The notes: a model not told the origin generated them from the letters alone. DNA of 64,000 nt from an uncultured Armatimonadia bacterium (GCA_963749155.1 CAVVLO010000002.1:96001-160000); one strand, 5' to 3'; shown: positions 29,113-61,908, counted from the stretch's first letter. Numbers and translations are program-made.

Positions 29113-30235
29113 TGTCACCCTCCTCCAATTCGATTGGGTTGTCTTCGGGAGCCACTTCCTCAAGATCCACCAGACCGCGTAGCTGAGCCAGCTCTTCCAG
29201 TTGCTTCAGTGTGCCCAGCACTACCAGCAAGTCTCCCGCTTCAATGAGGGTTGATGGATCGGGCACTATCTGGAACCCCTCCTCCCCTCTGCGTATCGCA
29301 AGTACAGAAATGCCAATCTGGCTGCGCAACTGGCTGGAAGCAAGGGTCTGCCCAACCAGTAGCGACTCGGGCCGGACCACGACCTCCTGGAGGACATAGC
29401 TGCTGCCCATTATGGCCGACTCAATAAACTCGGTTGCGCCAGGAGCGATGACCGACATCGCAAGCCTGCGCCCTGCAACCGAGTAAGGAGCCAGCACTCG
29501 AGTAGCTCCGGCTTTTTTGAGCTTGGGTACAGCATCTTCGGTTGAAGCCCTGGCGGCAATCACCAGCTCCGGATTCAGGCTGCGAGCTGTGAGCACAATC
29601 AAGGCGTTGTCTGCGTCGGTAGAGGCCGCTGCGATAAGCGCTCTTGCTTTATCGACTCTTGCTTCCAGCAGCACTTCATCTTCCGAAGCATCGCCCACGA
29701 CCACCAGGCGTCCCTCGCGAGAGAGTTCCTCTGCGACTTCAGGGAGAAGCTCCACGATAACCACCTGCTCGCCGCGTGCCTCGAGCATACGCACTGCCCA
29801 CTCGCCCATCCGGCCGCAACCACAAACAAGGGTATGACCGCTCAAAGTCTCGATGGATTTTTTCATCCTTTTCTTGCTCCACACATCAAGTAACTCGGCC
29901 TCAACCAGGTAAGCGACAGCATATCGCCCAGCGAACAGCAGAGTTATCCAGCCGAGCACCAGGTAGATGGAAGTGAATAGCCGGCCTAGTTGGTCCTGAG
30001 GTACGACCTCGTTGAAGCCCACGGTCGTGATGGTGATGATGCTCATATAGAGCGCGTCGATGAAGGTAACAGAGATGCCACTAGACTCAGCGAGCTGATT
30101 GCCATTTACGTAATAAAAAACGGTTGCGCCACCGACAAGCAAGAGCAGCAACCCAAGCAAGGCTCGGGCAGCCCCCAGTAAGCGACGGGGGTCATCGTGG
30201 GGCAGCTCAGCAGCTTTGCGTGAACTTGCAGACAC
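29105..30235 (-). CDS. Potassium channel protein with RCK (TrkA-N/TrkA-C) domains
   Basis: Pore motif TITTVGF, CGCGRMG, GDAS...DADN, TrkA-C. Confidence 0.9.
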   Translation of the reverse strand: MSASSRKAAELPHDDPRRLLGAARALLGLLLLLVGGATVFYYVNGNQLAESSGISVTFIDALYMSIITITTVGFNEVVPQDQLGRLFTSIYLVLGWITLLFAGRYAVAYLVEAELLDVWSKKRMKKSIETLSGHTLVCGCGRMGEWAVRMLEARGEQVVIVELLPEVAEELSREGRLVVVGDASEDEVLLEARVDKARALIAAASTDADNALIVLTARSLNPELVIAARASTEDAVPKLKKAGATRVLAPYSVAGRRLAMSVIAPGATEFIESAIMGSSYVLQEVVVRPESLLVGQTLASSQLRSQIGISVLAIRRGEEGFQIVPDPSTLIEAGDLLVVLGTLKQLEELAQLRGLVDLEEVAPEDNPIELEEGDNG

Positions 30236-31161
30236 GCTTCAGAACCTCTTCGGCCTCCGAGCTTAGCTTCTCCAGTACTTCGCGGCAGGTCATCAGTTCG
30301 TTTATCAGCCCCGCCGACTGACCTGCCATAAGCGAGCCTCGTTCCAAATCGCCTTCCCACACCGCTTTCGCAAGAGAGCCTATACCGAGTTCCTCGATCT
30401 CCTCGGCAGTTGCGCCTTCTCTTTCCAGTCGTTCGAACTCCCGAGTCAGTTGATTTTCCAGGGCGCGCACTGGATGGCCCAGGCTGTATCCTGTAACTGC
30501 TGTGTCGCGCTCACTGAGCCTTAAGGATAGCCTGTTTAAAGTTGTCGTGCATTGGCGATTCTACAGTCACCGCGAAACGTGTCCCAAGCTGAACACCTTC
30601 AGCGCCAAGACAGAGAGCGGCTGCCATCCCGCGCCCATCTGCGATGCCTCCTGCGGCGATGACTGGCACTTCTACTGCGTTGCAGATGGAAGGAGTTAGC
30701 ACCATGGACGTAACGTCGCCGATATGCCCCCCTGCCTCCATACCCTCTACGATTACCGCATCGGCGCCATAGCGCTCAAGCCTCTTGGCCAGCGCGCCAG
30801 CTGCGACAACAGGTATAACCTTGACACCAGCCTCTTTAAGGCTGGGAATATACTTGCCAGGATTGCCTGCGCCAAACACGACTACAGGTACTTGCTCTTC
30901 TGCCATCGCTTCTACCTTGGCAGGGATCTCATCAGCTAGCAAATAGATATTGATAGCGAAAGGTTTGTCTGTCAGCTCGCGCGTTTGGCATACCATCTCG
31001 CGCAGCTTATCAGGCGGGTAATTCCCGGCTGCAATGGTGCCAAGACCACCTGCATTACTGACTGCGGCTGCGAGCTCAGGCTGAGCAACATGGGCCATCC
31101 CGCCCTGGAAGATGGGAAATTCGATCCCAAGCAGCTCGGTAACCCTCGTTTTGAACATCAA
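30207..31161 (-). CDS. fabK: Enoyl-ACP reductase FabK / nitronate monooxygenase family (frameshift near 30514)
   Basis: PIFQGGMA, VSNAGGLG, EAGGHIG, AAGGIADGRG, GTRF; continues GHPVRALEN...MAGQSAGLI after one extra base. Confidence 0.85.
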
Positions 31162-31175
31162 TCAGGCACACTCCA

Positions 31176-32139
31176 TCAGGCCATATTACGCGCGAAGGCG
31201 CTAGCCAGTATCTCTTCGACAAGCTGGTCGTAACTTAGTCCAACTTCCTCGGCCTCGGCTGGTAGGTCGCTTGTATCTGTAAGCCCCGGCAGAGTGTTGA
31301 TTTCTATCAGATAGGGCCGATTATCTTCGGCGGCCACCTGCATATCAATCCGACTGTAACCATGGCACCCCAGCAAACGATGCGCTTCCACAGCCAGCTC
31401 CTGCACCTGCCGAGTTACTTCCGGTCCAAGCCTCGCAGGCAGAATAAAGTCCGTCGCGCCCGCGGTATATTTTGCCTCGTAATCGTAAAACTTGCCCTGG
31501 GGCACGAGCTCCAATACCGGCAAGGCTCTCAGCGATTCGCCCCAGCCTAGCACGCCAACTGTTATCTCCTGCCCAGCAATATATCGCTCGCAGAAGGAAA
31601 GTCCATAATACTCCGTAACCTGACGAATTGTATTGGCAAGTTCCTCGAGCGTCTCGCAAATAGATACGCCCACACTGGAGCCTTCACAGAGCCGGTTTAA
31701 CAACTACAGGCAATCCCAGTTGGTCCGCCACTCTGGCCGCCTGGCTTTCTGCCATCTCGCCCCGATAAAGCACGACAGACTCCGGTGTTTCAAGCCCGTA
31801 AGTGCGCCAAAGTCCCTTGGTGGCCAGCTTGTGCAAGCCGACAGCGCTTGCAAATACGCCACTACCTGTATAAGGCAAGCCAAACGTCTCGAGGAAGCCC
31901 TGGATCGTGCCGTCCTCTCCCGCGCCTCCATGCAAAGCTAGAAAAGCAACCTGGTAGTCGCCCTCAATTAGAGAGCGTGTCAGGCCCTGGGCCGTATCAA
32001 CCAGTGCGGCTTCATAACCTAGACGCTCGAGTGCGGCCTGGACCCTGGCGCCAGTGCGAAAGGAGACTTCCCTTTCACTGCTTGCGCCACCAGCCAGAAC
32101 AGCCACACGCTTCAGGTCGGCAGGCAAAGAATAACTCAT
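31176..32139 (-). CDS. ddl: D-alanine--D-alanine ligase (frameshift near 31688)
   Basis: GGASSEREVS, LHGGAGEDGTIQG, VVKP then EGSSVGVS, FYDYEAKY, SRID, EINTLPG. Confidence 0.92.
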
Positions 32140-47799: not shown

Positions 47800-48819
47800 T
47801 TATTGCTTGGCGGCCCGGCTTTCGAAACGCAGCCTGTAGGTCCCGATCCCGAAAAGGTCGCCGGCCCGCAGGCTGCGACTTGTTACAGGCTGACCGTTCA
47901 CCAGCACAGGTTGTCCTGTGCCCAGGTCGCGCAAGGAGCAGCGCCCACTCTCGATTGTGAGTTCGCAATGGAAAGGCGCGACCGAGGGGTCTTTTATCAA
48001 GGTGATATCCGCCTTGGGCGAACTGCCCAGCCGCGTCACATGCTGGTAGAGGATGAACTGCTTGCCCGCAAGTGGACCAGTAAGCACATGCAACCAGAAG
48101 GTCTTGGCAGCTTGTTCGACCGCGCTGATAGCGACTCCCACCAGCAGGCCCATTACCGAGAAGCCAATCAGGCGCGACATAAGGCCGCCGCCGGTGACGA
48201 TGGCAAGGGGATCAAACAAGGCCCCTCCCAGGAAGCCACCGAGCAGCCCACCTATCAGGCCATTGAGGATGCGCTTGCCCGAAAGCCCAGGCAAGCCTTG
48301 CCCAAGCCCCACAAACAGCCCCACCAGTGCCCAGGCAAGCGCGCGCACGAAGAGCTGTGTAGCAGGATTGCCACCTTGCTCTCCGCCCCCAAGAGAGGTA
48401 TATGCAGCCTGGCCAACTACGCTGCCGAAGGCGCCCCCTGCCCCGCCAACCAGCAAACCGATGAGAGCGCCCTTCAGGGCCTTCTCCCAAACCCCGCTTC
48501 CCACGCCTTCGGTTGCTCCGAGCAGCAAGCCTATAGGCCCGCCAATTCCAAGGCCCAGAATCAGCATCTCCAGCATCGGGTTGAGCGCCGAGGCAGCTTC
48601 ATCCGAGATGAAAGGCTCCACCGCGCACCAGCTGAGGAAGCCCCCAATCAGACCTGCAAGTGCCCCAAGCAGCACTGGCGAGAAAAGCACCTGAGAAGCG
48701 CCAGACTTGCCTTTGCCGGAGCCCTCTCCCCAGCCAGGGCCTCCCCCAGCACCGACCTGATCGAAGAGATCGCCGTCATCCTTGAAATCATCACTTGTCA
48801 GTATAAGGCGGTCGGGCAC
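47800..48819 (-). CDS. Gly-rich multi-TM protein with C-terminal FHA domain
   Basis: About 6 GxxxG-rich helices, then GPLAGKQFIL...LGSSPKADI...HCEL...LRDLG...VNGQ...LRAGD..GIG. Confidence 0.82.
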   Translation of the reverse strand: MPDRLILTSDDFKDDGDLFDQVGAGGGPGWGEGSGKGKSGASQVLFSPVLLGALAGLIGGFLSWCAVEPFISDEAASALNPMLEMLILGLGIGGPIGLLLGATEGVGSGVWEKALKGALIGLLVGGAGGAFGSVVGQAAYTSLGGGEQGGNPATQLFVRALAWALVGLFVGLGQGLPGLSGKRILNGLIGGLLGGFLGGALFDPLAIVTGGGLMSRLIGFSVMGLLVGVAISAVEQAAKTFWLHVLTGPLAGKQFILYQHVTRLGSSPKADITLIKDPSVAPFHCELTIESGRCSLRDLGTGQPVLVNGQPVTSRSLRAGDLFGIGTYRLRFESRAAKQ

Positions 48820-49520
48820 TAGTCAAGCACACTCCTGGCTATGGCGTAACCCAGCTGCACAATTAGCTCTTTGAAATTCTTGGTAGAGTCGATGTCTGTG
48901 AAGGTACCGCCCGTCTTCTGCGCCAGCATCAGATAACCTTCAAGGGGCTTCGCGACGACATAACAGGCTAGCCCGCGCTCTTTCAATCCGGTCACTGCAT
49001 CCTCGAGTTTCAGCGTAGTGAAGTCTGTGCCGTCGCCAGCGGTGTGATAACCGGCATCACTAATCAGGATCAGCACTCGCTTGGCCTCGGGCCGGAAGGC
49101 CATCCGCGAGGCACTCATCAACGCTTCAAGCTGATTTTCGGGCTCATCCACGCCACCAACAGCTTGCTGGACGGCCAGCCAGGACTTGAACTCTCCAACA
49201 CTGGGGGTGAGGCTCAGGTCCTCGCGATACACCATCCTGACCTCATCACCGAAGGTCACCAGGCCAAATTTACAGTCTACGCCCTGACCGCTTAATAATT
49301 CGGAGAACTGTTCCGACGCAGCCAAAGTGCCATCGATCTCTTCTCTCATACTGCTGGTTGTGTCGAAAACAAAAACCACGTCCACTGGCTCGGGGCTGAA
49401 GGCCCCTCCCCGCCAGAAGAGCGCCAAAGCGATAAGCCCGGCCCAGCAGGCAACGATCAGCAGCCCAAGGGGAAGGTTGGCAAAGAGAGCTCGGTTGAAT
49501 TCTTTCAGAGAAAAACCCAT
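48819..49520 (-). CDS. Membrane-anchored von Willebrand factor A domain protein
   Basis: N-terminal TM; VDVVFVFDTTSSM (MIDAS-like), GGVDEPE, LILISDA. Confidence 0.88.
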   Translation of the reverse strand: MGFSLKEFNRALFANLPLGLLIVACWAGLIALALFWRGGAFSPEPVDVVFVFDTTSSMREEIDGTLAASEQFSELLSGQGVDCKFGLVTFGDEVRMVYREDLSLTPSVGEFKSWLAVQQAVGGVDEPENQLEALMSASRMAFRPEAKRVLILISDAGYHTAGDGTDFTTLKLEDAVTGLKERGLACYVVAKPLEGYLMLAQKTGGTFTDIDSTKNFKELIVQLGYAIARSVLD

Positions 49521-50635
49521 CAGAGCCCCTCCTTACCCTTGCCCTGGCGCACCCAGAAGACCAGCACTGTGTTGCCCACATGCAGCAAGGCGCCATCTCG
49601 CAGCCTGGCCGATGAGACAGGTTGCCCATCAAGCCCCACTTGAAGTCCTCGCTCGGCCTGCACCTGCCAGCCCGTGCCAGTATGCCGCAGGACGAAGTGA
49701 CGCTCTGCCAGGCCAGGTTCTTTCACCAGCCGCACATCCGCCTCAGGCGAGGAGCCCACCCAATTTTCGGGCTTGTGCAGTATGAACTGCTTACCCCGCA
49801 TCGAGCCTTTGGCCACAGCCAGCCAGGCCTGCTTGAAGACCTCGCCAGCAAGCCCCATCAGCAGTCCAACACAGGCGCCAAGAGCTAGCAGTGCAAGCAG
49901 TCTGCCCAGGCTTGAAGAAGCAACCGCGCCTTTGATAGCCTCAAAGGCGATGCCCCCCAGTAGTCCTCCCAGCGCCCCACCCAGCAGCCCATTGCGCAGC
50001 TTGGCTGCCGAGGTATGCAAAGCCGAACTGCCAATTCCCAGGAAGAAGCCCAGCACCGACCAGCCGACAGCTCGCACAAGTAACGCCGCGGCAGGCCCCA
50101 TAAGATGCCCAGTGGATGCGAACTGGTAAGCCCACTCGGCAAGCGCGCCGCCAAGCGCGCCTCCACAAGCGCCTATCAGCCCCCCCATAAAAGCGTGAGC
50201 CAGAGCCGAAGTGATATCTCCGAAAACCAGTTCCTCAAAACTGCTGAGGAAAAGCCCAATCAGAGCGCCCGCCACCAGGCCATATAAAGCCGTCCTGATT
50301 ATCAGGTCTCCTCCGAAGGAACTCGACCAGGCTAGCAGGATTATCTCTCCAAGCAGCCAGGCGCAAACCGCACCAAGTAGCCCGGCAACCAGCAGCAGGG
50401 CCGGCCTGAGAAGAGCGGAAGCACGACGCGGAGCCACCTCGGGTTTGGCCCAGGCCTCTACTGGAGGGCCAACCGAGGCGCCTGCCGGCTCGAAGACTTC
50501 CTCCTCGCTGAAGTCCTCTGCCCCGAGCACCAGCCTTCCAGAGGCCGGGGGAGGCGCAGGTTCCTCCTCGGCAAAGTCCTCGGAAGTCAACTCCAGTCGC
50601 TCTGGCAGCTCTTCCTTGTCGGGCGTATTGTCCAA
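49520..50635 (-). CDS. Gly-rich multi-TM protein with C-terminal FHA domain (paralog of 47800-48819)
   Basis: Same architecture: RAVGWSVLG, NGLLGGALGGLLGG, GKQFIL, VGSSPEADV, LRDG. Confidence 0.82.
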   Translation of the reverse strand: MDNTPDKEELPERLELTSEDFAEEEPAPPPASGRLVLGAEDFSEEEVFEPAGASVGPPVEAWAKPEVAPRRASALLRPALLLVAGLLGAVCAWLLGEIILLAWSSSFGGDLIIRTALYGLVAGALIGLFLSSFEELVFGDITSALAHAFMGGLIGACGGALGGALAEWAYQFASTGHLMGPAAALLVRAVGWSVLGFFLGIGSSALHTSAAKLRNGLLGGALGGLLGGIAFEAIKGAVASSSLGRLLALLALGACVGLLMGLAGEVFKQAWLAVAKGSMRGKQFILHKPENWVGSSPEADVRLVKEPGLAERHFVLRHTGTGWQVQAERGLQVGLDGQPVSSARLRDGALLHVGNTVLVFWVRQGKGKEGL

Positions 50636-50651: not shown

Positions 50652-51443
50652 CTAGACTGTAGTATCGATTATTCCCTCACTGGCGAGTTTCTGGGCCATC
50701 TGGTCGCGCTTCTCATAACCGGCCTCAAGCGCGGCTTTACTGGCACTGCCGAGTCTGGGAAGTTCAGCAAGCGCCGCTTCATCCACCGGCACCAAGGCTT
50801 GTCTGGCAAGCCCATCAGGCCCGGCCAGGCCCATCAGTTGAAGCAGTTCTTTCATCCTGGCCTCGGTGCCTACAGGACCAAACAACCAAAATCCAACCCG
50901 TCGCAGTCCTTCAGGGCCTTGCTGGAAAGCGCCCAGCTTGCCTTGAACCGGGTCGTGTACCACCGCTACCTGGCCAGGGGCGCTGAAAAAATTCTGCTGG
51001 ATGAACTGGTCGAACTCACTGAGGAAAACCCCAAAGCCCGGATGCGTGTGATACCAGCCCATTATCTTGAGGCCAGGCCAGTTGGCGTCCAGTTCGGCGG
51101 AGAAGGCATTCCAGGTGGCATGGGTGAAGGTAATGTTGGTGTGAGTATGGGTTATATGCTGAGCGGGCAAAGCGTGCTCTAGCTCGATGGCCTCGAAGGG
51201 CGCCCCGCCCGGCAGCTGCCAACGCGAGCGCCTGCCGATTAACGCCCCCCCGAGTTCTCTGCTGCGGTCAGTCATACAGTGAGCGCGCATCGCCGATAAA
51301 GCGCTCAATTTGAAGAAAAGGGGTACCACTGCCGAGGCAGGTCGCTCATACTCGAATACCACCATATCGGTGGTCGCGCGCAGAGGCAACTCCTGCTTCG
51401 GAGCCGCCTCACTCAGGCTGATTTGGAAGTCTTTTTCCGCCAT
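50652..51443 (-). CDS. JAB/MPN+ (JAMM) metallopeptidase, soluble
   Basis: ELGGALIG ... GWYHTHPGFGVFLSEFD. Confidence 0.9.
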   Translation of the reverse strand: MAEKDFQISLSEAAPKQELPLRATTDMVVFEYERPASAVVPLFFKLSALSAMRAHCMTDRSRELGGALIGRRSRWQLPGGAPFEAIELEHALPAQHITHTHTNITFTHATWNAFSAELDANWPGLKIMGWYHTHPGFGVFLSEFDQFIQQNFFSAPGQVAVVHDPVQGKLGAFQQGPEGLRRVGFWLFGPVGTEARMKELLQLMGLAGPDGLARQALVPVDEAALAELPRLGSASKAALEAGYEKRDQMAQKLASEGIIDTTV

Positions 51444-51457
51444 AGCCTCTAACCGGG

Positions 51458-51997
51458 CTAACCGAGCTGGATGTCGAAATCGTCTCCACTGGGCGCTGGC
51501 GCCTGGGCCTCATCAAAGAAAACAATATCGATGTCTGGTTGCCGCAAGTCCACATTCTGCAACGGGAACCGGTTCCTGTTCAACTCTGACCAGCGCGCAG
51601 CTTCCGCGTTAAGGGGGCTTTTGGGATTATATTCCTGATAGGTCAGCATCTCGGCGACCTGATAAACGATGTCGACCAGAGTCTCACCGGCCGCCCAGTG
51701 GTCGCCGATGCAGATATAACTGCCAAAGTTGGGGTGCCAGACAGGATCCAGCATCACTGACTTGGGCTTCTCCCTTGGATAATCAGTGTGCAGATATATC
51801 TCGGCGCGGTGGACCTCCCTTGTGCGGATGTTGCCCTGCGCATCGCGCCAAAGCCCCTTAACCCGGTACGTAATCCGATACCGGTCAGGAGGATTGGCGG
51901 GACCAATCGGCTCCACCGTGATATAGGGGTGACCCGAGAACTCCTCTTGCACTCGGCTCCAGTCGGCGGCAAGTCGCCTGAGTCTTGCAACACTCAT
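51458..51997 (-). CDS. Ubiquitin-conjugating enzyme E2 (UBC fold)
   Basis: RLRRLAAD, DYPREKP, WHPNFGSYICIGDHW (HPN plus catalytic Cys), NPKSPLNAEAA. Confidence 0.92.
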   Translation of the reverse strand: MSVARLRRLAADWSRVQEEFSGHPYITVEPIGPANPPDRYRITYRVKGLWRDAQGNIRTREVHRAEIYLHTDYPREKPKSVMLDPVWHPNFGSYICIGDHWAAGETLVDIVYQVAEMLTYQEYNPKSPLNAEAARWSELNRNRFPLQNVDLRQPDIDIVFFDEAQAPAPSGDDFDIQLG

Positions 51998-52026: not shown

Positions 52027-52947
52027 CTAGCGTTTTATCATACCAAGTAAGCCGGCTGCATTGACCAAAACCGCTTGTGCCTGCCCATATTCATACGAAA
52101 ATTGCTGTAAGGCACCAACGTTTGCGGCCATCTCGGCCCGGCGCAGGTGAGTAACCGCACTTTGCACCTGGCCGACAAACTGCAGTCTCATTGGATTATC
52201 ACGCCCTAGCTGCACCAAAGGCTCGAGTAAGGCTTCACCTGCCTGACGCTCTCCTTCGGCCCTTGCCTGATCGCCCAGGCTCCAATGCTGGGTGGCCAGA
52301 TTGAGGTGATTCAAAGCCTCATCAGCAATTGCCACGAACCTCGACTCATCGAGGAAAGCCGAACCAGCCAGTCCAATAATAATAATTACAACAGCTACAG
52401 CCATTACCGCAAGCACGCCAAAAGCTACCTGGGGACTAGCGCGCCGGCTAGTTGGCCTGGGCCAGCCAGGAGCTGGACGCGCCCATTGGGGAACAGGCCG
52501 GTTGCCCGGCGCGGTCGGCATTACCGGTCGCTGCCCCTGATTTTGGCGCACCTGGGGCGAATTCTCGCACCCATAGGTCGTACAACCGCCGTTCTCCTGC
52601 CAGCATTCCTCGTGATGGGGGATACCGCAGGTAGGACAAACGATACTCCTCTCCCCAGCATCTATTTCGCACTGACAATAAGGACAATTTCTACCTTTCG
52701 TTGGACTGGCCTCGGACTTCATCTCCACAGGTTCGCCTGGCTCATCGAAGGGAATGGGCGCTGGCGCCGTTTGGGTTGGCCCCAGAGTTATTAGCACCTC
52801 GTCATCCTGGTCTAGTGAAGGCAAATCTGATACGCGTGGCCGTGCAAGCGAGGTCTCGAATATCTCCCCGCATACCGGACACATATAAGGAGCAGGCCCT
52901 GCGTCTCGAAACTCGCGCCTGCATCTTGGACAGACAAGCTCAGCCAT
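52027..52947 (-). CDS. Zn-ribbon plus prokaryotic RING (Prok-RING_1-like) plus TM plus external helical domain; candidate E3
   Basis: CPRC/CPVC; CPYCQCEI...CPTCGIPHHEECWQENGGCTTYGC; TM. Confidence 0.82.
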   Translation of the reverse strand: MAELVCPRCRREFRDAGPAPYMCPVCGEIFETSLARPRVSDLPSLDQDDEVLITLGPTQTAPAPIPFDEPGEPVEMKSEASPTKGRNCPYCQCEIDAGERSIVCPTCGIPHHEECWQENGGCTTYGCENSPQVRQNQGQRPVMPTAPGNRPVPQWARPAPGWPRPTSRRASPQVAFGVLAVMAVAVVIIIIGLAGSAFLDESRFVAIADEALNHLNLATQHWSLGDQARAEGERQAGEALLEPLVQLGRDNPMRLQFVGQVQSAVTHLRRAEMAANVGALQQFSYEYGQAQAVLVNAAGLLGMIKR

Positions 52948-52953
52948 ATATCC

Positions 52954-53640
52954 TCAGTCGGGCACCTGCTCTGATGCTTCGCTTCGGCCGGTCCTCAAAG
53001 GGGCTGGTTGGCCTCTCGCGTTGCATCCGTATGCGGCACAGCCTGCATTTTCGCTCCAGCAGTCGAAATGATGAGGCAGTCCGCACTTGGGGCAAAACAA
53101 CACCACATCGCCTCGCTCGAAAGGGCTCAGGCAGTAGGCACAAATCTGCCCTGCCACTTCGTCGCCAGCTATCACGAGGTCATAACCTGAATGCCTGAAA
53201 CTCGATGCTACTCCTGTATTGCGCGCGGTCTTGATATGAACGAACAACTGCTGTCCCTGGGGCGACACCAGATGCCACAAGACCAGGCCCCACAGTATAG
53301 AGACAAGCGTCATTGCGCCCAGGGCGAATCCCTGCCAGAGACCGTACGAGAGCCCACCCCAGACTGCAAGCCAGAGCGTAAAAATCCCTGACAGTATGCC
53401 GCTGAAAGGGTCTTCGGAATCGATAACCACATCGCGCAGCTCGGTCCAGGTCACTCGCCGACGCCGCGCAAGTATCACTGGCACAGCGAGCGCCACCAGC
53501 ACTCCCGCCAGGAGGAGCGGCCAGGCGAACACCGTTCCAATGAGCGAGGCGCCCAAGGCGATAAATCCGCCAGAAGCCACGAACAGCAACGCGAAGGCAA
53601 GACCTCCGCGCAGCTCCCTGGAGCCAGACTGACTGCGCAC
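52954..53640 (-). CDS. Four-TM protein with C-terminal prokaryotic RING; candidate E3
   Basis: CAYCLSPF...CPKCGLPHHFDCWSENAGCAAYGC. Confidence 0.82.
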   Translation of the reverse strand: MRSQSGSRELRGGLAFALLFVASGGFIALGASLIGTVFAWPLLLAGVLVALAVPVILARRRRVTWTELRDVVIDSEDPFSGILSGIFTLWLAVWGGLSYGLWQGFALGAMTLVSILWGLVLWHLVSPQGQQLFVHIKTARNTGVASSFRHSGYDLVIAGDEVAGQICAYCLSPFERGDVVLFCPKCGLPHHFDCWSENAGCAAYGCNARGQPAPLRTGRSEASEQVPD

Positions 53641-53718
53641 TATACTCCACCGGGCACAGGCGGCCTTAGCTGGCCTGACGCGCCCCCTCTATCATATCAA
53701 ACAGGTGGCGTGTAGGGG

Positions 53719-54351
53719 CTACGTTCCGACCAGAGAAGGCAATCCGCAACACAGGCACGTAAAGAGCAGTATCACCAGTGAGTACACCAGCAGGCTGCGA
53801 CCAAAAGCTCTATCCTCAGGATGGCGCTGCCCCATCAGGATTGCGCCGCCGACAATTCCAGCAAGAGGGCCGATCCCGGTAAAAGCCAGCAGCAGAACCA
53901 TTATGTAGAAAATAGTCCTGACTGCCGCCGGGATCGCCGGCTGTGGCCTCGTCCCTCTGGCAGACCCCCTGTCCCACTGGTCGCCCCGCTGGTCGGACGG
54001 ATAGGGATAGGGCGGCGCCTCTGGACTACGCGGAGCAGTAGGTTCGGTGCGCCCAGCCAGAGCGCGCGCCTGAGGGCTTTCGCTGCAGCCATAAGTTGTG
54101 CAACCCTCGTTCTCTCGCCAGCATTCGAGGTGATGCGGGGTAGCGCAAACTGGACAGCTATGAGTCTGATCTGAAGGGCCAATCTCACTTTGGCAATACG
54201 GACAGAGTTTGCCCACTACGCTTGCTGGCGCCTCTGGCTGGCGAGGGGCTGCGGGCTGCCTTGTAAACATCAACTGGCAATGGGGGCAGAAGTGCATCTC
54301 CCCCGGCTCGTCCTCAAAATTCTGGTTGCAGCGTGGGCACTGGACCTGCAA
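53719..54351 (-). CDS. Zn-ribbon plus prokaryotic RING plus two TMs; candidate E3
   Basis: CPRC/CPHC; CPYCQSEI...CPVCATPHHLECWRENEGCTTYGC; TTG start with AGGAG RBS. Confidence 0.82.
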   Translation of the reverse strand: MQVQCPRCNQNFEDEPGEMHFCPHCQLMFTRQPAAPRQPEAPASVVGKLCPYCQSEIGPSDQTHSCPVCATPHHLECWRENEGCTTYGCSESPQARALAGRTEPTAPRSPEAPPYPYPSDQRGDQWDRGSARGTRPQPAIPAAVRTIFYIMVLLLAFTGIGPLAGIVGGAILMGQRHPEDRAFGRSLLVYSLVILLFTCLCCGLPSLVGT

Positions 54352-54369: not shown

Positions 54370-55059
54370 CTAGCTCTTGAGCCATAAGGCAAAGCCGCGC
54401 AGTAACGCCAGTTCTACCACTCCAAGCAAAATCAGCAACCCCAGGGTGCGCAAGGGAGCTTTCCTCAGCATACTGATGCCCGAGGTACGTCTGTCATGCA
54501 GCGCGAGCGCTGCCAGGTTGATTAGCGCCCCTGCAAGGAGCACCCCAAGCAAACTGAGTCCATCGAGCACAATCCAGCCTGGTCTGATAAGCAATACCAA
54601 CAGGCTGACCCCAGCCAGTGTAACCAGACCAAGCCCAAAGGGTTCCCAGACAGATTTGAACATTGGGCGCCGCGGGGGCCTGGCCGGGGCATGGTTAATA
54701 ATAACCAGCAGCAGACTGGCCAGGGCAGGCCCGGCGAAAGCCCCTGTTGCCAAACGGGTCAGGTTGTCAGTTTCTCTGAAGCCCAGACCAGCAGAAATAG
54801 CATCCAGCCCCATCGGTGCAAGTAAAGCCAGCAAGGCAAGCATACGCCAGACATCGCCTGGATAGTCGGCTTTCGCGCGCCCAAGTGCAGCCAGAAGGAG
54901 CACTCCGACAACAAGTCCCAGATGCACTCCCGTGCAACGCGCGCAGAGGGCCAGTTGCACTTCGCCAGGAGCGAAGGAGTGGCTGGGCATCCGATGGCAT
55001 AAACAGGCGCCTAGCTGATCAGCGCTTTGCCGAAACAACTCGACCCACTCGGGAGCCAC
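54370..55059 (-). CDS. DUF2085 family membrane protein
   Basis: LCHRMPSHSF...LCARCTGVHLG, PMGLD, NLTRLATG. Confidence 0.85.
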   Translation of the reverse strand: MAPEWVELFRQSADQLGACLCHRMPSHSFAPGEVQLALCARCTGVHLGLVVGVLLLAALGRAKADYPGDVWRMLALLALLAPMGLDAISAGLGFRETDNLTRLATGAFAGPALASLLLVIINHAPARPPRRPMFKSVWEPFGLGLVTLAGVSLLVLLIRPGWIVLDGLSLLGVLLAGALINLAALALHDRRTSGISMLRKAPLRTLGLLILLGVVELALLRGFALWLKS

Positions 55060-55061
55060 AA

Positions 55062-56074
55062 TTACGTCCCAGCCGGCTGCTCGCCGCTCGCAGGAAGAAT
55101 CAGTAACCGCCCTGGCAACAATCTGTCAGGATTCACAATCCCATTCAGCCTGGCAATTTCCACCCAGCGCTCGCGAGCCCCGAGTTTTTGCTCCGCTATA
55201 CTGCTTAAGGTATCGCCGGCGCTACCTGATAGATTTGGTAAACCGCCTCGGCTTGGGGTTGAACGGCAGTTGGAGCAGGCTCGGTCTGTACGCCCGCAGC
55301 AATCGGTGGAGGGAGCTTGGCCAGTTCAGCCTGGGCCGCATAGAGTTTGATTTTTACATCTGACAATTCAGTTTCCAGACGCTGGACCCTGGTTGTCAGC
55401 GCAAGCAGCAGCACGCAGGCAGCCAGCAAGAGCGCCCAGGGAGCCCAGAGGGCCAACCTCGAGGCCGGTTGCGCAGCCGGCTGAAGGGCCTCGGGCGCCA
55501 GCCCCTCGTGCACCAGGTGATAGCCGGGCAGCAGTTCAGGCCCTGAGTCGGTATTTCCGAAAAAGCCTTGTTCTTTGGCCCGAGGGTCGTAAACCAGCGC
55601 CACCTGAGAGGGCATATTGAAAAAATTGCCCTGGATAAAAAGGTCGTGACCTGACAGGAATATGCCGAATCCAGGATGAGAGTGCACCCAGCCGACGACT
55701 TTCTGGTCAGGATAGTCGGCTTCCAGTACCTCATAAATGTGGTTCCAGGCTTCGTGGGTGAAGGTAAGGCTGGCTCTGCGCGAGTCGGCGCCCTCGGCGG
55801 CGATCATCCCAGTCACATGGATGTGCCAGCGCCCGCGCTTTTCGTGGGAAGTACCCACTAGCACCCCGCCCAGCTCATTGGAGAGATCCTGACTAAGGCA
55901 GGCGACGATCTGATCCCAGACCGGGGCGTCCAGATAGACTTGTACGCGCGCGGACTCAGGCTGTCCAATAGCCTCGCAGTGTTCGGGAGCAGGCAGTTTG
56001 GAGGCAGAGCCTCCCCCGCCCTCTACGGCAGGGGCAAGCTCTAATTCGAAGCCTTCTTCGTTGTTATCAGTCAT
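55062..56074 (-). CDS. JAB/MPN+ peptidase plus TM plus coiled coil plus LysM (frameshift near 55217)
   Basis: ELGGVLVG, GWVHSHPGFGIFLSGHD; TM; restoring one base gives YQVAPGDTLSSIAEQKLGARERWVEIARLNGIVNPDRLLPGRLLILP, with stop at 55062. Confidence 0.85.
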
Positions 56075-56078
56075 CTGA

Positions 56079-57410
56079 TCAGATTCTCGACAGGTTGCGC
56101 TGGATACTGGCAGGCTTGCGTTTATGCTCGAGGCGAGGCTCCATACTGGTCGCCAGCGCCCCAAGGGCGCGAGCGCGATCCGCGGCCAACAAGTAATGCT
56201 TCATCTCGAGTCCTACCCGCGCGGTCACGATGTCGTAGAGGGGCAGGCCAATCTCAGCCAGTGTCATATCGCCGAACTCTTCGGTCCCGCTGTAGGTATG
56301 AGCCAGCTCGGTATCGCGCGCTTCTCCACAGCCCGGGCACCTGGCATCTTTTTCGGACAGTCTGCCAAGCAGTTTGAAAACAGGTTCTCTTGTTCCGCAC
56401 TTTTGGCACAGGAAGGCCGCAACCAGCTCGCGGTCCAGTTCTACCAGCGCCTCAGGTCCCAGATCAGTTCTGGCCCGTTCCAGCAAAGCGTTGAAGGTCA
56501 GGTCAGCGACTCCAGCTTCAAGGGGGATTACTTCCTCAAAGGTAAAATGGGACAGGCAATCTTCTTTCCTTGGATAGTCTACAAGGAAAGAATCGTGAGT
56601 CAGCCCGTTAAAGACCCAGCCCTTGCCGTAAAGCACAGGGAGTTCGGGGCGAGCGTGCAAAAGTTTTAACGCCTCCAGCACTTGTACACCTGCCACGATG
56701 GAAGCACTGGTTGGAGTTGTCGGCACCTTCCCCTCGAGCAACTGGTCCCGGCTGAGCAGAGCGCAGGACTTGCGAGCCGCCAGCAGCTTGGTGTCGAATT
56801 CGTTCATCGTGCATTCATAGCAAGACGAGTCCGGTGGCACAAAAACTCGCGCGATGCCATTCAACACTTCTATGGCGCCATCTATCCAGGGAGTGTTTAC
56901 CTTCCAGCAGGCCTGGTTGATACCGAGTCTGGCCTCCCGGTTGTCAAGCCCGCCGAGGACGACATCCATCTCCAGGAAAACGCCAAGCCCAATATCGGTC
57001 AGCACATTGCCCTGCACCGCGTGAACCGCACAGTCAGGGTTGATTTCCCTGACTGTTTCAGCAGCCACTTCGGCCTTCGGGCGTCCCTCGTCTTCGACCC
57101 GGAATAAAACCGAACGCGTAAGGTTGGAATGCTCTACCGTATCGAGATCAAGCACCAGCAGATTGCCCACGCCAAGCAAAGCGAGATTCTTGAGCAGCTC
57201 GTTTCCAAGCGCGCCGGCGCCTACAATCAGCACCGAAGAAGCTTTGAGCAGAGTTTGATCCCACCAGGGCACGAGGAAGAAACGCGCATAACGGCTGGCT
57301 TCTTCCTCCATACTGACAGTGAGAGGCCCGCCTTCCGCGTCCTTGCCCGAAGGCGCGGGCGCGGGGCCTTCTACAGCAGCCCCGAGCTCAATATCAAAGT
57401 CATCACTCAT
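56079..57410 (-). CDS. E1 ubiquitin-activating-like enzyme (ThiF family with C-terminal extension)
   Basis: VGAGALGNELLKNLALLGVG, DLDTVEHSNLTRSVLFR, GLDNREAR, CYEC, candidate catalytic Cys in RKSCALL. Confidence 0.92.
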   Translation of the reverse strand: MSDDFDIELGAAVEGPAPAPSGKDAEGGPLTVSMEEEASRYARFFLVPWWDQTLLKASSVLIVGAGALGNELLKNLALLGVGNLLVLDLDTVEHSNLTRSVLFRVEDEGRPKAEVAAETVREINPDCAVHAVQGNVLTDIGLGVFLEMDVVLGGLDNREARLGINQACWKVNTPWIDGAIEVLNGIARVFVPPDSSCYECTMNEFDTKLLAARKSCALLSRDQLLEGKVPTTPTSASIVAGVQVLEALKLLHARPELPVLYGKGWVFNGLTHDSFLVDYPRKEDCLSHFTFEEVIPLEAGVADLTFNALLERARTDLGPEALVELDRELVAAFLCQKCGTREPVFKLLGRLSEKDARCPGCGEARDTELAHTYSGTEEFGDMTLAEIGLPLYDIVTARVGLEMKHYLLAADRARALGALATSMEPRLEHKRKPASIQRNLSRI

Positions 57411-57413
57411 CTG

Positions 57414-57683
57414 CTAACCAGCCGTGACTTCTGGCTGCAACCGCATCACGTCGCCATCCTTCACGCCAGCGTCGGCAAGGCTTTCGTCGTCCGTAAGTTG
57501 CTTGCCCGACTGCTTGTGGACCACTTTGTAAGAGAGCGGTTGGCCGTCAGGGCCGGTCGCCGGCAGTTTCATCATCTGCACAAGCTTGGCAACAATACGA
57601 CGCACCGCTACATCATCCGGCACGGTCGCCTGCTGTTCTTTGTTGCCAGTTACATCAATTATGGTCACGTTGACCTGTCCCAC
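57414..57683 (-). CDS. Ubiquitin-like beta-grasp protein (YukD/EsaB-like) ending in Gly
   Basis: VNVTIID...VPDD...GKQLTDDESLADAGVKDGDVMRLQPEVTAG-stop; GTG with AGGAGG RBS. Confidence 0.9.
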   Translation of the reverse strand: MGQVNVTIIDVTGNKEQQATVPDDVAVRRIVAKLVQMMKLPATGPDGQPLSYKVVHKQSGKQLTDDESLADAGVKDGDVMRLQPEVTAG

Positions 57684-57695
57684 TGCTGGCCTCCT

Positions 57696-58706
57696 TTAGT
57701 GAAGCTGGATGTCTATATCATCCAAATTTTCTTCTGGTTCTTCGCGTGGCGCCTGAGGTTGCGGGGTTGTCGGCCCGCCGAAATGGATCTCGGGCTCAGG
57801 CCCCACCTCCTGCGGTTGGACTGGCTGCTGGCCTGGCATCGGAGTGTGCGGGCCTTTCTTCATGAACAGCCAGGTGATTACCGTTGCAATCGCCATTATG
57901 ATGAATATGACAAGTACCCAAACCGCCGGATTGGCGGGAGGCTTTTCTTCGGCTGGCACTTCAGGCACATCGGTCTCAGGAGGGCTGGGAGTCTCGCCCG
58001 CCGGAGGCCTGGCGCCTTCGACAAGCTTAAGGCTGAATTGCTTATGACTTGGGACTACCAGGGCTGAGACGCCTTGCTGATTGAGCAGCTTCAACAAGTC
58101 GTTGCTTGGCAGGGCAAAGCCCATACCCTGGGCGCCTTTCAGTACGCGCACAGCTACCCCCAGCACCTCGCCCTGCGAGTTGAGCAGCGGTCCACCACTG
58201 TTGCCAGGATTTAGCGCCGCATCTGTCTGCAGGAATGGCTGGTCCTTTTCTTCCGAAGGCAAGGAGCTGATGATGCCCCGAGTAGCCGAATCGATGGCAA
58301 AAGGCGAACCAATCGCAACGACTGAATCGCCCTGCTTTACGCTTGCCGAATCGGCAAGGGCCAGTGCAGGCGAATTGTCCACCGGGACTTTCAGCAACGC
58401 CACGTCGGCCTTCTCATCCCGGAAGGTTACCTGGGCCTGGGTCTTCTTCTTGCCGTATAACTCGACATCCACCATCGGATGCCCGCCTACGACATGCGCG
58501 CAGGTCACCGCGACGCCATCGGTGTTGATGAAGAAACCAGTGCCAATCCGTTGCTTGCCCTCTTCATCTACCGAGACCTGAAGGACAGCTGGTTTGGCTC
58601 CTTCAATCAGGGCAGGGGTCGGCTTGTCACCAGACTGACAGAAGGCCGGTAAGCCTGAAATCGTTATCCAGCCAGTAAGGAGCATTGCGAGCACTAGCCA
58701 CTTCAT
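57696..58706 (-). CDS. Membrane-anchored trypsin-like (HtrA-type, no PDZ) serine protease
   Basis: Signal peptide; GTGF, TCAHVV, DVALL, TDAALNPGNSGGPL; C-terminal TM and acidic cytoplasmic tail. Confidence 0.9.
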   Translation of the reverse strand: MKWLVLAMLLTGWITISGLPAFCQSGDKPTPALIEGAKPAVLQVSVDEEGKQRIGTGFFINTDGVAVTCAHVVGGHPMVDVELYGKKKTQAQVTFRDEKADVALLKVPVDNSPALALADSASVKQGDSVVAIGSPFAIDSATRGIISSLPSEEKDQPFLQTDAALNPGNSGGPLLNSQGEVLGVAVRVLKGAQGMGFALPSNDLLKLLNQQGVSALVVPSHKQFSLKLVEGARPPAGETPSPPETDVPEVPAEEKPPANPAVWVLVIFIIMAIATVITWLFMKKGPHTPMPGQQPVQPQEVGPEPEIHFGGPTTPQPQAPREEPEENLDDIDIQLH

Positions 58707-60991: not shown

Positions 60992-61908
60992 GTGCGAAAA
61001 CAAGTCGTGTTTGGCGTTTTACTTACCTTCGTCCTGCTCGTGTGTTTCGGGCTGGGTTATTGGTGGTCGGTGCCCAATCGGGTAGCGGGCCGTTTTCCGG
61101 TGGCCCCTGAGTCCGATCGATTGACAGCCTGATACAGAGCTGGCTCTGGTGCTTGGTCCTGGTGGCTCAAGAGGGGCAGCTCATATAGGGGCGCTCAAAG
61201 CCCTGAGAGAAGCCAAACTCCAGCCGGGCCTCGTTCTCGGGGTAAGCGCCGGCTCTATCGCCGCCTGCGCTTATAGCCTTGGATTGCCCCTGGACGACCT
61301 GAGGCAGTTGTCAATCAACACTTCCACTGCCGCGATCACCTGGCCCTCTTTTTCGATCAGGGCGCCTTTCAGTCAGACTAACCTGCGTCGGTATCTGACC
61401 CGGGTATTTGGTGAGGCTCAACTTGAACAGTTGCCCATCAAATGTGTAATCGTCGCGACTGATCTGATATCCGGCGAACCTTTGTATCTGACGTCTGGTT
61501 CGGTTGTGGACGCCTGCCTGGCCAGTTGCGCCATACCGGGCACTTTCCAGGCCAAGGAGCTTGGAGGGCGTTATTATATCGACGGGGGGATCTCCGATCC
61601 GCTGCCCGGTGCGCAAGGCGCGCTCACTTGGGGCGAAGCAGGTTATCGTCCTTGATCTCGGAGTCCTTGGGCCCGATTTTCCAGCTCGCAAAAGTTTTAT
61701 CCACACCCTCGGCAAAGCTTTGAATGTGTCCATAGAAAAGCTCGCAGCCTGGGAAGCGGCCGAAGCGGACCTGGTAGTGCGTCCAAAGGTCAGCCAGGTC
61801 GACATGTTTGATTATTCACAAGGCCCTTTTGTGTATCAGCAAGGCTACGAGGCCACTCGCAAGGCGCTTGAAGAGGCGTCTCCTGGATTGCACAAGCCCA
61901 GCCGCTAG
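60992..61908 (+). CDS. Patatin-like phospholipase with probable N-terminal anchor (frameshifts near 61124 and 61607)
   Basis: GPGGSRGAAHIG, GVSAG, ASCAIPG, DGG; upstream frame MRKQVVFGVLLTFVLLVCFGLGYWW; downstream frame VRKARSLGA...RPKV. Confidence 0.8.

Follow-up and report, generated by a model that had tools for sequence, protein, structure and literature searches.

The JAB gene on the minus strand of the window, by which we mean the whole 64,000-nt stretch of DNA analysed here from an uncultured Armatimonadia bacterium (GCA_963749155.1 CAVVLO010000002.1:96001-160000), is likely to encode a membrane-anchored JAMM/MPN+ (Rpn11-like) isopeptidase of a membrane-associated Ubl operon. Its true product would be 337 aa long with a LysM tether, the truncation in the sequence being most probably a one-base deletion left by a noisy assembly. 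The LysM module is truly encoded after the membrane JAB.

Two reading frames meet within the gene. Frame A runs from the ATG at 56074 to a TAA at 55207-55205 and gives a product of 289 aa terminating in YQIYQVAPAIP, in agreement with a preliminary description of this DNA in which the ORF ended at YQVAPAIP. According to translation, Pfam and a structure model, its residues 1-289 (55208..56074, minus strand) comprise a disordered N-terminal tail, a JAB/MPN+ domain, a transmembrane (TM) helix, a helical stalk and the residues YQVAP. Starting at about 55327 the -1 frame (frame B) is free of stops; its translation from 55216 on is (G)DTLSSIAEQKLGARERWVEIARLNGIVNPDRLLPGRLLILPASGEQPAGT, closed by a TAA at 55064-55062. 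This segment (55065..55216, minus strand; 50 full codons plus two bases of a broken first codon) holds the body of a LysM domain (PF01476) and a short tail, and is 96% identical to the corresponding part of P0001, a 337-aa protein from a 2250-nt metagenome contig. P0001 is 93% identical to the protein of the window and has JAB, Prok-JAB and LysM in one uninterrupted chain, with a junction that reads YQVAPSDTLSSIAE (YQVAPSDTLSS) in one frame.

What separates the two frames is a single missing base at 55216..55217 (minus strand), a coding-strand A that is part of a serine codon, AGC, in relatives (APSDTL in P0001). Contigs from four public runs, belonging to four studies, were compared over 54400-56400. 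The junction is covered by two metagenome contigs, one from run X2 (1389 nt, 45 differences) and one from run X10 (248 nt, 15 differences), and lies outside the coverage of runs X1 and X3. Both covering contigs (2/2, from two different studies) carry a T inserted behind 55216 on the plus strand, which is a coding-strand A between CCG and GC and yields CCG-AGC-GAT, that is P-S-D, as in P0001. The highest share of words sampled from the window that any public sequencing run contained was 0.52, and the covering contigs are those of relatives rather than of the source strain. The proposal that one missing base near 55217 restores a LysM domain is thus borne out by these contigs, by the single-frame P0001 and by the PF01476 match of frame B. 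Also as had been described, 2 nt separate the stop of the LysM frame from the next gene (DUF2085, GTG at 55059). Upon read-through this spacing is in line with the gaps of the operon, which range from -1 to 78 nt; truncation at the frame A stop would leave 145 nt.

Frame B alone matches PF01476 with an E value of 2.2e-7 and 31.1 bits (cut-off 20.9) over profile positions 6-43 of 43, and the absent positions 1-5 are supplied by YQVAP in frame A. A complete profile match (1-43) is found by Pfam in P0001 and in 11/11 orthologs. The fragment differs from P0001 at just 2 of 51 positions, the rest of the protein being 93% identical, and has therefore not decayed. In the model of P0001 the domain adopts the beta-alpha-alpha-beta fold, with strands at residues 279-283 and 324-328 and helices at 290-298 and 301-310 (pLDDT about 84-92).

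The group to which the JAB-LysM protein belongs, as an ordinary member, is known but uncharacterised, and the fusion is common and already in print. A search with P0001 of 61 genomes (60 relatives from the class and the window's own) found a JAB in 30 at an E value of 1e-10 or lower. In 15 genomes besides the window's the match extends across the LysM part to at least query residue 329, free of stops; among the 61 genomes, only the window's has an internal stop within the match. A lack of the LysM in homologs had been put forward as what would refute the preliminary reading; the LysM is kept in all 11 orthologs examined (L004-L014), each with JAB and LysM over the Pfam cut-offs in one frame. 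Across all phyla, LysM occurs on just 4 of the best 120 JAB matches, suggesting that the LysM form is one branch of a larger membrane-JAB family. P0007, P0020 and P0082 have the order JAB-TM-stalk-LysM, as in P0001; P0032, with a C-terminus that is LysM-like by eye, was rejected as LysM-bearing since Pfam gives no LysM match at E 0.001. In the ESM Atlas, JAB and LysM occur together in four clusters (75, 58, 80 and 52 members), where LysM is present on 89-99% of members (all four clusters) and JAB on 90-96% in three clusters and 41% in one; the commonest phyla are Actinomycetota, Ignavibacteriota and Bacillota. A related-locus search of genome contigs returned two distant loci in which the LysM part was not covered. 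The phrase "bacterial lysM-associated JAMM sequences" appears in the Fig. 1 legend of Fuchs et al. (2018; PMC6043591). These sequences and the ESM Atlas clusters have the same domain pair as the window copy, which differs solely by the one-base break. LysM is unmentioned in the available passages of Iyer et al. (2006; PMC1779556), and in the full-text collection searched we found no functional or experimental work on JAB-LysM proteins or on operons of this kind.

Frame A matches JAB PF01398 (E 5e-9, 36.4 bits, cut-off 22.5) and Prok-JAB PF14464 (E 8.2e-8, 32.6 bits, cut-off 25). The JAMM/MPN+ signature consists of a catalytic Glu and an HxH-x7-S-x2-D zinc motif. Here the zinc motif HSHPGFGIFLSGHD (H131, H133, S141, D144) lies at 55643..55684 on the minus strand with the upstream catalytic Glu, E67, in NELGG. 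Since E67, H131, H133, S141 and D144 are unchanged in 15/15 aligned rows, the JAB enzyme is predicted to be active. Together with the placement of the gene in a Ubl-E1-E2-RING operon, the intact JAMM residues make Ubl deconjugation or processing a fair expectation, with the Ubl as the probable substrate.

The alignment of JAB-LysM proteins has 15 rows and contains 13 distinct LysM-bearing or LysM-like homologs. It was used to build an AlphaFold2 model of P0001 with a mean pLDDT of 79. The model consists of a disordered N-terminal tail at residues 1-31 (pLDDT below 50), a JAB core at 33-188 (about 90-97), a single continuous helix at 206-252 (about 86-93), a flexible linker at 253-278 (under 50 at 261-274, the ends higher) and the LysM at 279-328. 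The single TM segment, residues 207-225 (55400..55456, minus strand; Kyte-Doolittle mean 2.3), lies within the continuous helix and coincides with the hydropathy maximum in all 15 rows, so that Pfam, hydropathy and the model of P0001 all agree with the layout of JAB, single TM, helix and LysM first described. The remainder of the helix, residues 226-252 (55319..55399, minus strand), forms a stalk. The part of the preliminary description that called this region a coiled coil holds as far as the model has a helical stalk there. A conserved signal-transmitting coiled coil is harder to maintain, as the stalk is missing from 3 of the 13 distinct homologs (L004, L007 and L008), which have proline-rich linkers instead. 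As to topology, the JAB would lie inside and the LysM outside, mainly because the E1 needs ATP, a signal peptide is absent and LysM ligands are found outside the membrane. Summed over the 15 rows, K/R residues number 40 in the 15 residues before the TM and 29 in the 15 after it, a mild N-in bias.

The gene lies in an operon whose members share one strand (minus). An HtrA/DegS-like serine protease domain protein (57696..58706), with a signal/anchor at the N-terminus, a TM towards the C-terminus and a cytoplasmic tail that ends in DDIDIQLH, is followed by a YukD-type Ubl of 89 aa that ends in EVTAG (57414..57683; Pfam), a 443-aa E1-like ThiF adenylyltransferase (56079..57410; ThiF E 1.3e-52) and the JAB-LysM gene. 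Next come a DUF2085 multi-pass membrane protein (54370..55059; Pfam), three Prok-RING_1 proteins (53719-54351, 52954-53640 and 52027-52947, spanning 52027..54351; Pfam) and an E2 (UQ_con; 51458..51997) with the HPN motif, the catalytic Cys and two acidic motifs in its C-terminal tail. A second JAB paralog (50652..51443), with an intact JAMM motif, lacks a hydrophobic segment by eye and is apparently soluble; FHA-type, VWA and second FHA proteins close the operon (47800..50635). The order protease-Ubl-E1-JAB_LysM-(JAB)-E2-RING-(JAB)-FHA recurs in ten relatives, with the JAB-LysM gene immediately 3' of the E1 in 9/10. Among these ten loci the Ubl is present in nine, the protease in eight, the E2 in all ten and the RING in eight. 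The Ubl is the best conserved component, at 69-75% identity to the window's, with 51-57% for the E2 and 32-36% for JAB-LysM. It terminates in TAG in 8/10 rows including the window, whose Ubl therefore has the free C-terminal glycine for adenylation; two rows carry short extensions (Q and RGIAP), for which trimming would be needed. The six organism-named E1 relatives among the 120 matches listed comprise five Armatimonadota and one Acidobacteriota, which hints weakly at the phylum.

Several features of the operon proteins were observed alongside these results. The YukD-type Ubl shows a ubiquitin-like degree of conservation across families and ends in TAG, not GG. The HtrA-like protease is without a PDZ domain; close to its C-terminus there is a second TM, followed by a cytoplasmic tail rich in proline, and its topology mirrors that of the JAB-LysM protein. 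A divergent second E2, without the acidic C-terminal motif and ending in DDRPLAPG followed by H or Y, lies upstream of the protease in L019, L022 and L024.

We regard it as highly probable that the one-base break is an assembly error and not biology, and the same kind of damage is widespread in this genome. Within the window, ddl is split into an N domain (31687-32139) and a C domain (31179-31703) whose frames meet at VVVKPAL, followed by a stop, and CEGSSVGV; this is the genome's sole copy, and profile positions 1-154 and 156-317 fall in different frames. The nitronate monooxygenase gene is split as well (30514-31161 and 30210-30470), the start of proC (from about 2108) is out of frame with its dimerisation domain (2376-2903), and the two parts of a patatin gene, 61149-61655 and 61504-61908, lie in different frames. 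A search for nine universal families in the window's own genome found ddl, secA (1-722 and 725-786), both uvrA copies, gyrA and gyrB cut across frames, while rpoB, rpoC and ileS are intact and EF-G has one stop-flagged and one intact copy. The intact rpoB, rpoC and ileS are on contig C1, the broken secA, two uvrA and ddl on C2, which is the window's contig, and gyrA and gyrB on C5, which suggests an error rate that is uneven and differs by contig. So many broken essential genes would hardly be tolerable to a living cell, and assembly error is the general cause that they point to. A real deletion, that is a recent strain frameshift leaving a 289-aa JAB-TM-stalk protein without LysM and a remnant that has not yet decayed, is improbable. 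It would fit the fact that the deleted base lies outside any homopolymer, the commonest site of long-read indels, and that the junction-covering data come from contigs of relatives and not of the source strain. A LysM-less membrane JAB is also viable, given that 116 of the best 120 JAB homologs across phyla have no LysM. However, the essential ddl and secA on the same contig and gyrA and gyrB elsewhere are frameshifted too, the LysM remnant has suffered no further damage at 96% identity to P0001, and the fusion is kept in every relative examined. Programmed -1 ribosomal frameshifting or transcriptional slippage, producing a short isoform without LysM and a long one with it, would need a shift of exactly -1 at CCG|G to give YQVAP-GDTL. 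This was rejected as extremely improbable because an X_XXY_YYZ heptamer and a homopolymer of at least 5 are both absent where both frames are open, and because relatives encode the protein in one frame, so that no recoding signal is conserved. That the LysM looks "hidden" is hence almost certainly an assembly artefact and not biology, as the split ddl, secA and gyrA and the intact relatives indicate. With many single-base indels in the assembly, "hidden" domains and split genes here are best treated as errors until reads contradict this, and the finding in the window matters mainly as a caution on an indel-rich assembly. Two further observations concern the same genome: the uvrA genes form a tandem pair at G000:C2:1086957-1092532, both frame-split, and split marker genes may account for part of its 5.87% "contamination".

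In the working that we propose, the 337-aa product would have a disordered acidic N-terminus and a zinc protease domain in the cytoplasm, where the JAB domain would act at the membrane's inner face, trimming the YukD-type Ubl or releasing it from its targets there. The TM helix and stalk would lead to the C-terminal LysM outside the membrane, whose probable ligand is peptidoglycan, and the LysM would tie the enzyme to it as a tether rather than as a sensor. The preliminary description favoured a receptor-like deubiquitinase that links cell-wall state or location to Ubl removal. In such a model the LysM would respond to muropeptides or the state of the peptidoglycan outside, and the signal would pass along the stalk and TM to switch the JAB inside. 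The predicted layout, with a ligand-binding domain outside, one TM and an enzyme inside, is that of a receptor, and the HtrA/DegS-like protease, which lies outside with a conserved tail inside, has the mirror layout and suggests coupling across the membrane. However, the replacement of the stalk by proline-rich linkers in three homologs and the unstructured stretch between stalk and LysM (residues 253-278) argue against rigid signal transmission, and bacterial LysM modules are usually wall anchors. We therefore consider a receptor very improbable; a peptidoglycan tether would be the simpler role and would account for the same anatomy.

Among solved structures, the best sequence matches of the JAB-LysM protein are yeast Rpn11 (E 5.8e-8), AMSH (2.7e-7) and CsRpn11 from Caldiarchaeum subterraneum (6fjv, 5.7e-7; residues 44-164), and it has the same E...HxH...S..D zinc site as Rpn11, CsRpn11, AMSH and CSN5. 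CsRpn11 is operon-linked with Ubl, E1, E2 and RING in the available passages of Fuchs et al. (2018; PMC6043591), and the JAB-LysM gene is likewise operon-linked to Ubl, E1, E2 and RING proteins. Unlike Rpn11, the JAB-LysM protein has a TM helix and a predicted extracytoplasmic LysM and is not part of a proteasome lid, and in contrast to the Rpn11 systems the window has a YukD-type Ubl with TAG, not GG, at its end. The Ubl, E1, E2, RING and JAB genes are co-located on one strand, which is the arrangement that characterises Prok-RING_1-type operons, and the window has the families of such operons: PF14446 (three copies), PF08817, PF00899, PF00179 and PF01398/PF14464. Operons of Prok-RING_1, YukD-type Ubl, E1, E2 and JAB, the source of Pfam PF14446, were reportedly described by Burroughs, Iyer and Aravind in Mol Biosyst in 2011. 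The E1-like and JAB domains are also shared with the anti-phage systems CBASS (Cap2/Cap3), Bil (BilABCD) and 6A-MBL. These systems differ in being without RING, TM, LysM and HtrA-like protease, and in having E1 and E2 fused or arranged differently. Matches to the PADLOC JAB, E1-E2 and BilD models and to NCBIfam 6A-MBL cap2_3 are weak (27.4 and 46 bits, with a cut-off of 320 for NF058523), and none of the 11 flanking ORFs scanned matched cyclase or effector families. Membership in CBASS, Bil or 6A-MBL was rejected because all operon proteins score far under the family cut-offs. The Ubl-E1-E2-RING-JAB set of the operon is complete, eukaryote-like and entirely associated with the membrane, and two of the operon's proteins (the LysM protein and the HtrA-like protease) are predicted to reach the cell-wall side. 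Knowledge of the targets of tagging, and of the reason for the link with peptidoglycan, would help to understand how ubiquitin-type signalling arose and what its primitive uses were.

An acidic motif, [DE]-hydrophobic-[DE]-hydrophobic-x-L, stands on the terminal tails of nearly all proteins of the operon, and we take it to resemble a SUMO-interacting motif. In the JAB-LysM protein it is EEGFELELA (56033..56059, minus strand), within the disordered N-terminal tail. The N-termini of the E1 (DDFDIELG, 57390-57410) and of the second JAB (EKDFQISLS, about 51420-51443) carry it as well, and it forms the extreme C-termini of the E2 (DDFDIQLG, 51458-51481, with an internal copy, QPDIDIVF) and of the protease (57696-57719). 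It is conserved at the protease C-terminus in 8/8 relatives with a protease match, at the E2 C-terminus in 10/10 rows (alignment A3) and at the E1 and JAB N-termini in most loci, and it is found at the N-termini of distant, AT-rich LysM-bearing homologs. A regular-expression search of the last 15 residues found the motif in 14 of the genome's 3369 ORFs, with two of the 14 belonging to this operon. Its presence in the operon tails may be a new observation. A speculative reading, which we consider rather unlikely, is that a membrane-bound Ubl machine has two arms that cross the membrane, the JAB-LysM protein and the HtrA-like protease, and that the motif, a beta-strand-like peptide, serves as a common docking site, so that events at the cell wall are coupled to the tagging and untagging by the Ubl in the cell interior. 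If this were true, the docking peptide, as an analogue of the SUMO-interacting motif, would bring the enzymes together, either on the Ubl or on a single scaffold. A complex prediction in which the Ubl was paired with residues 138-179 of the E2 tail, each supplied as an alignment, scored 0.30, with the mark at 0.32, which leaves the docking idea neither strengthened nor weakened. The motif was also observed inside RING and FHA proteins of relatives (L017-L026).
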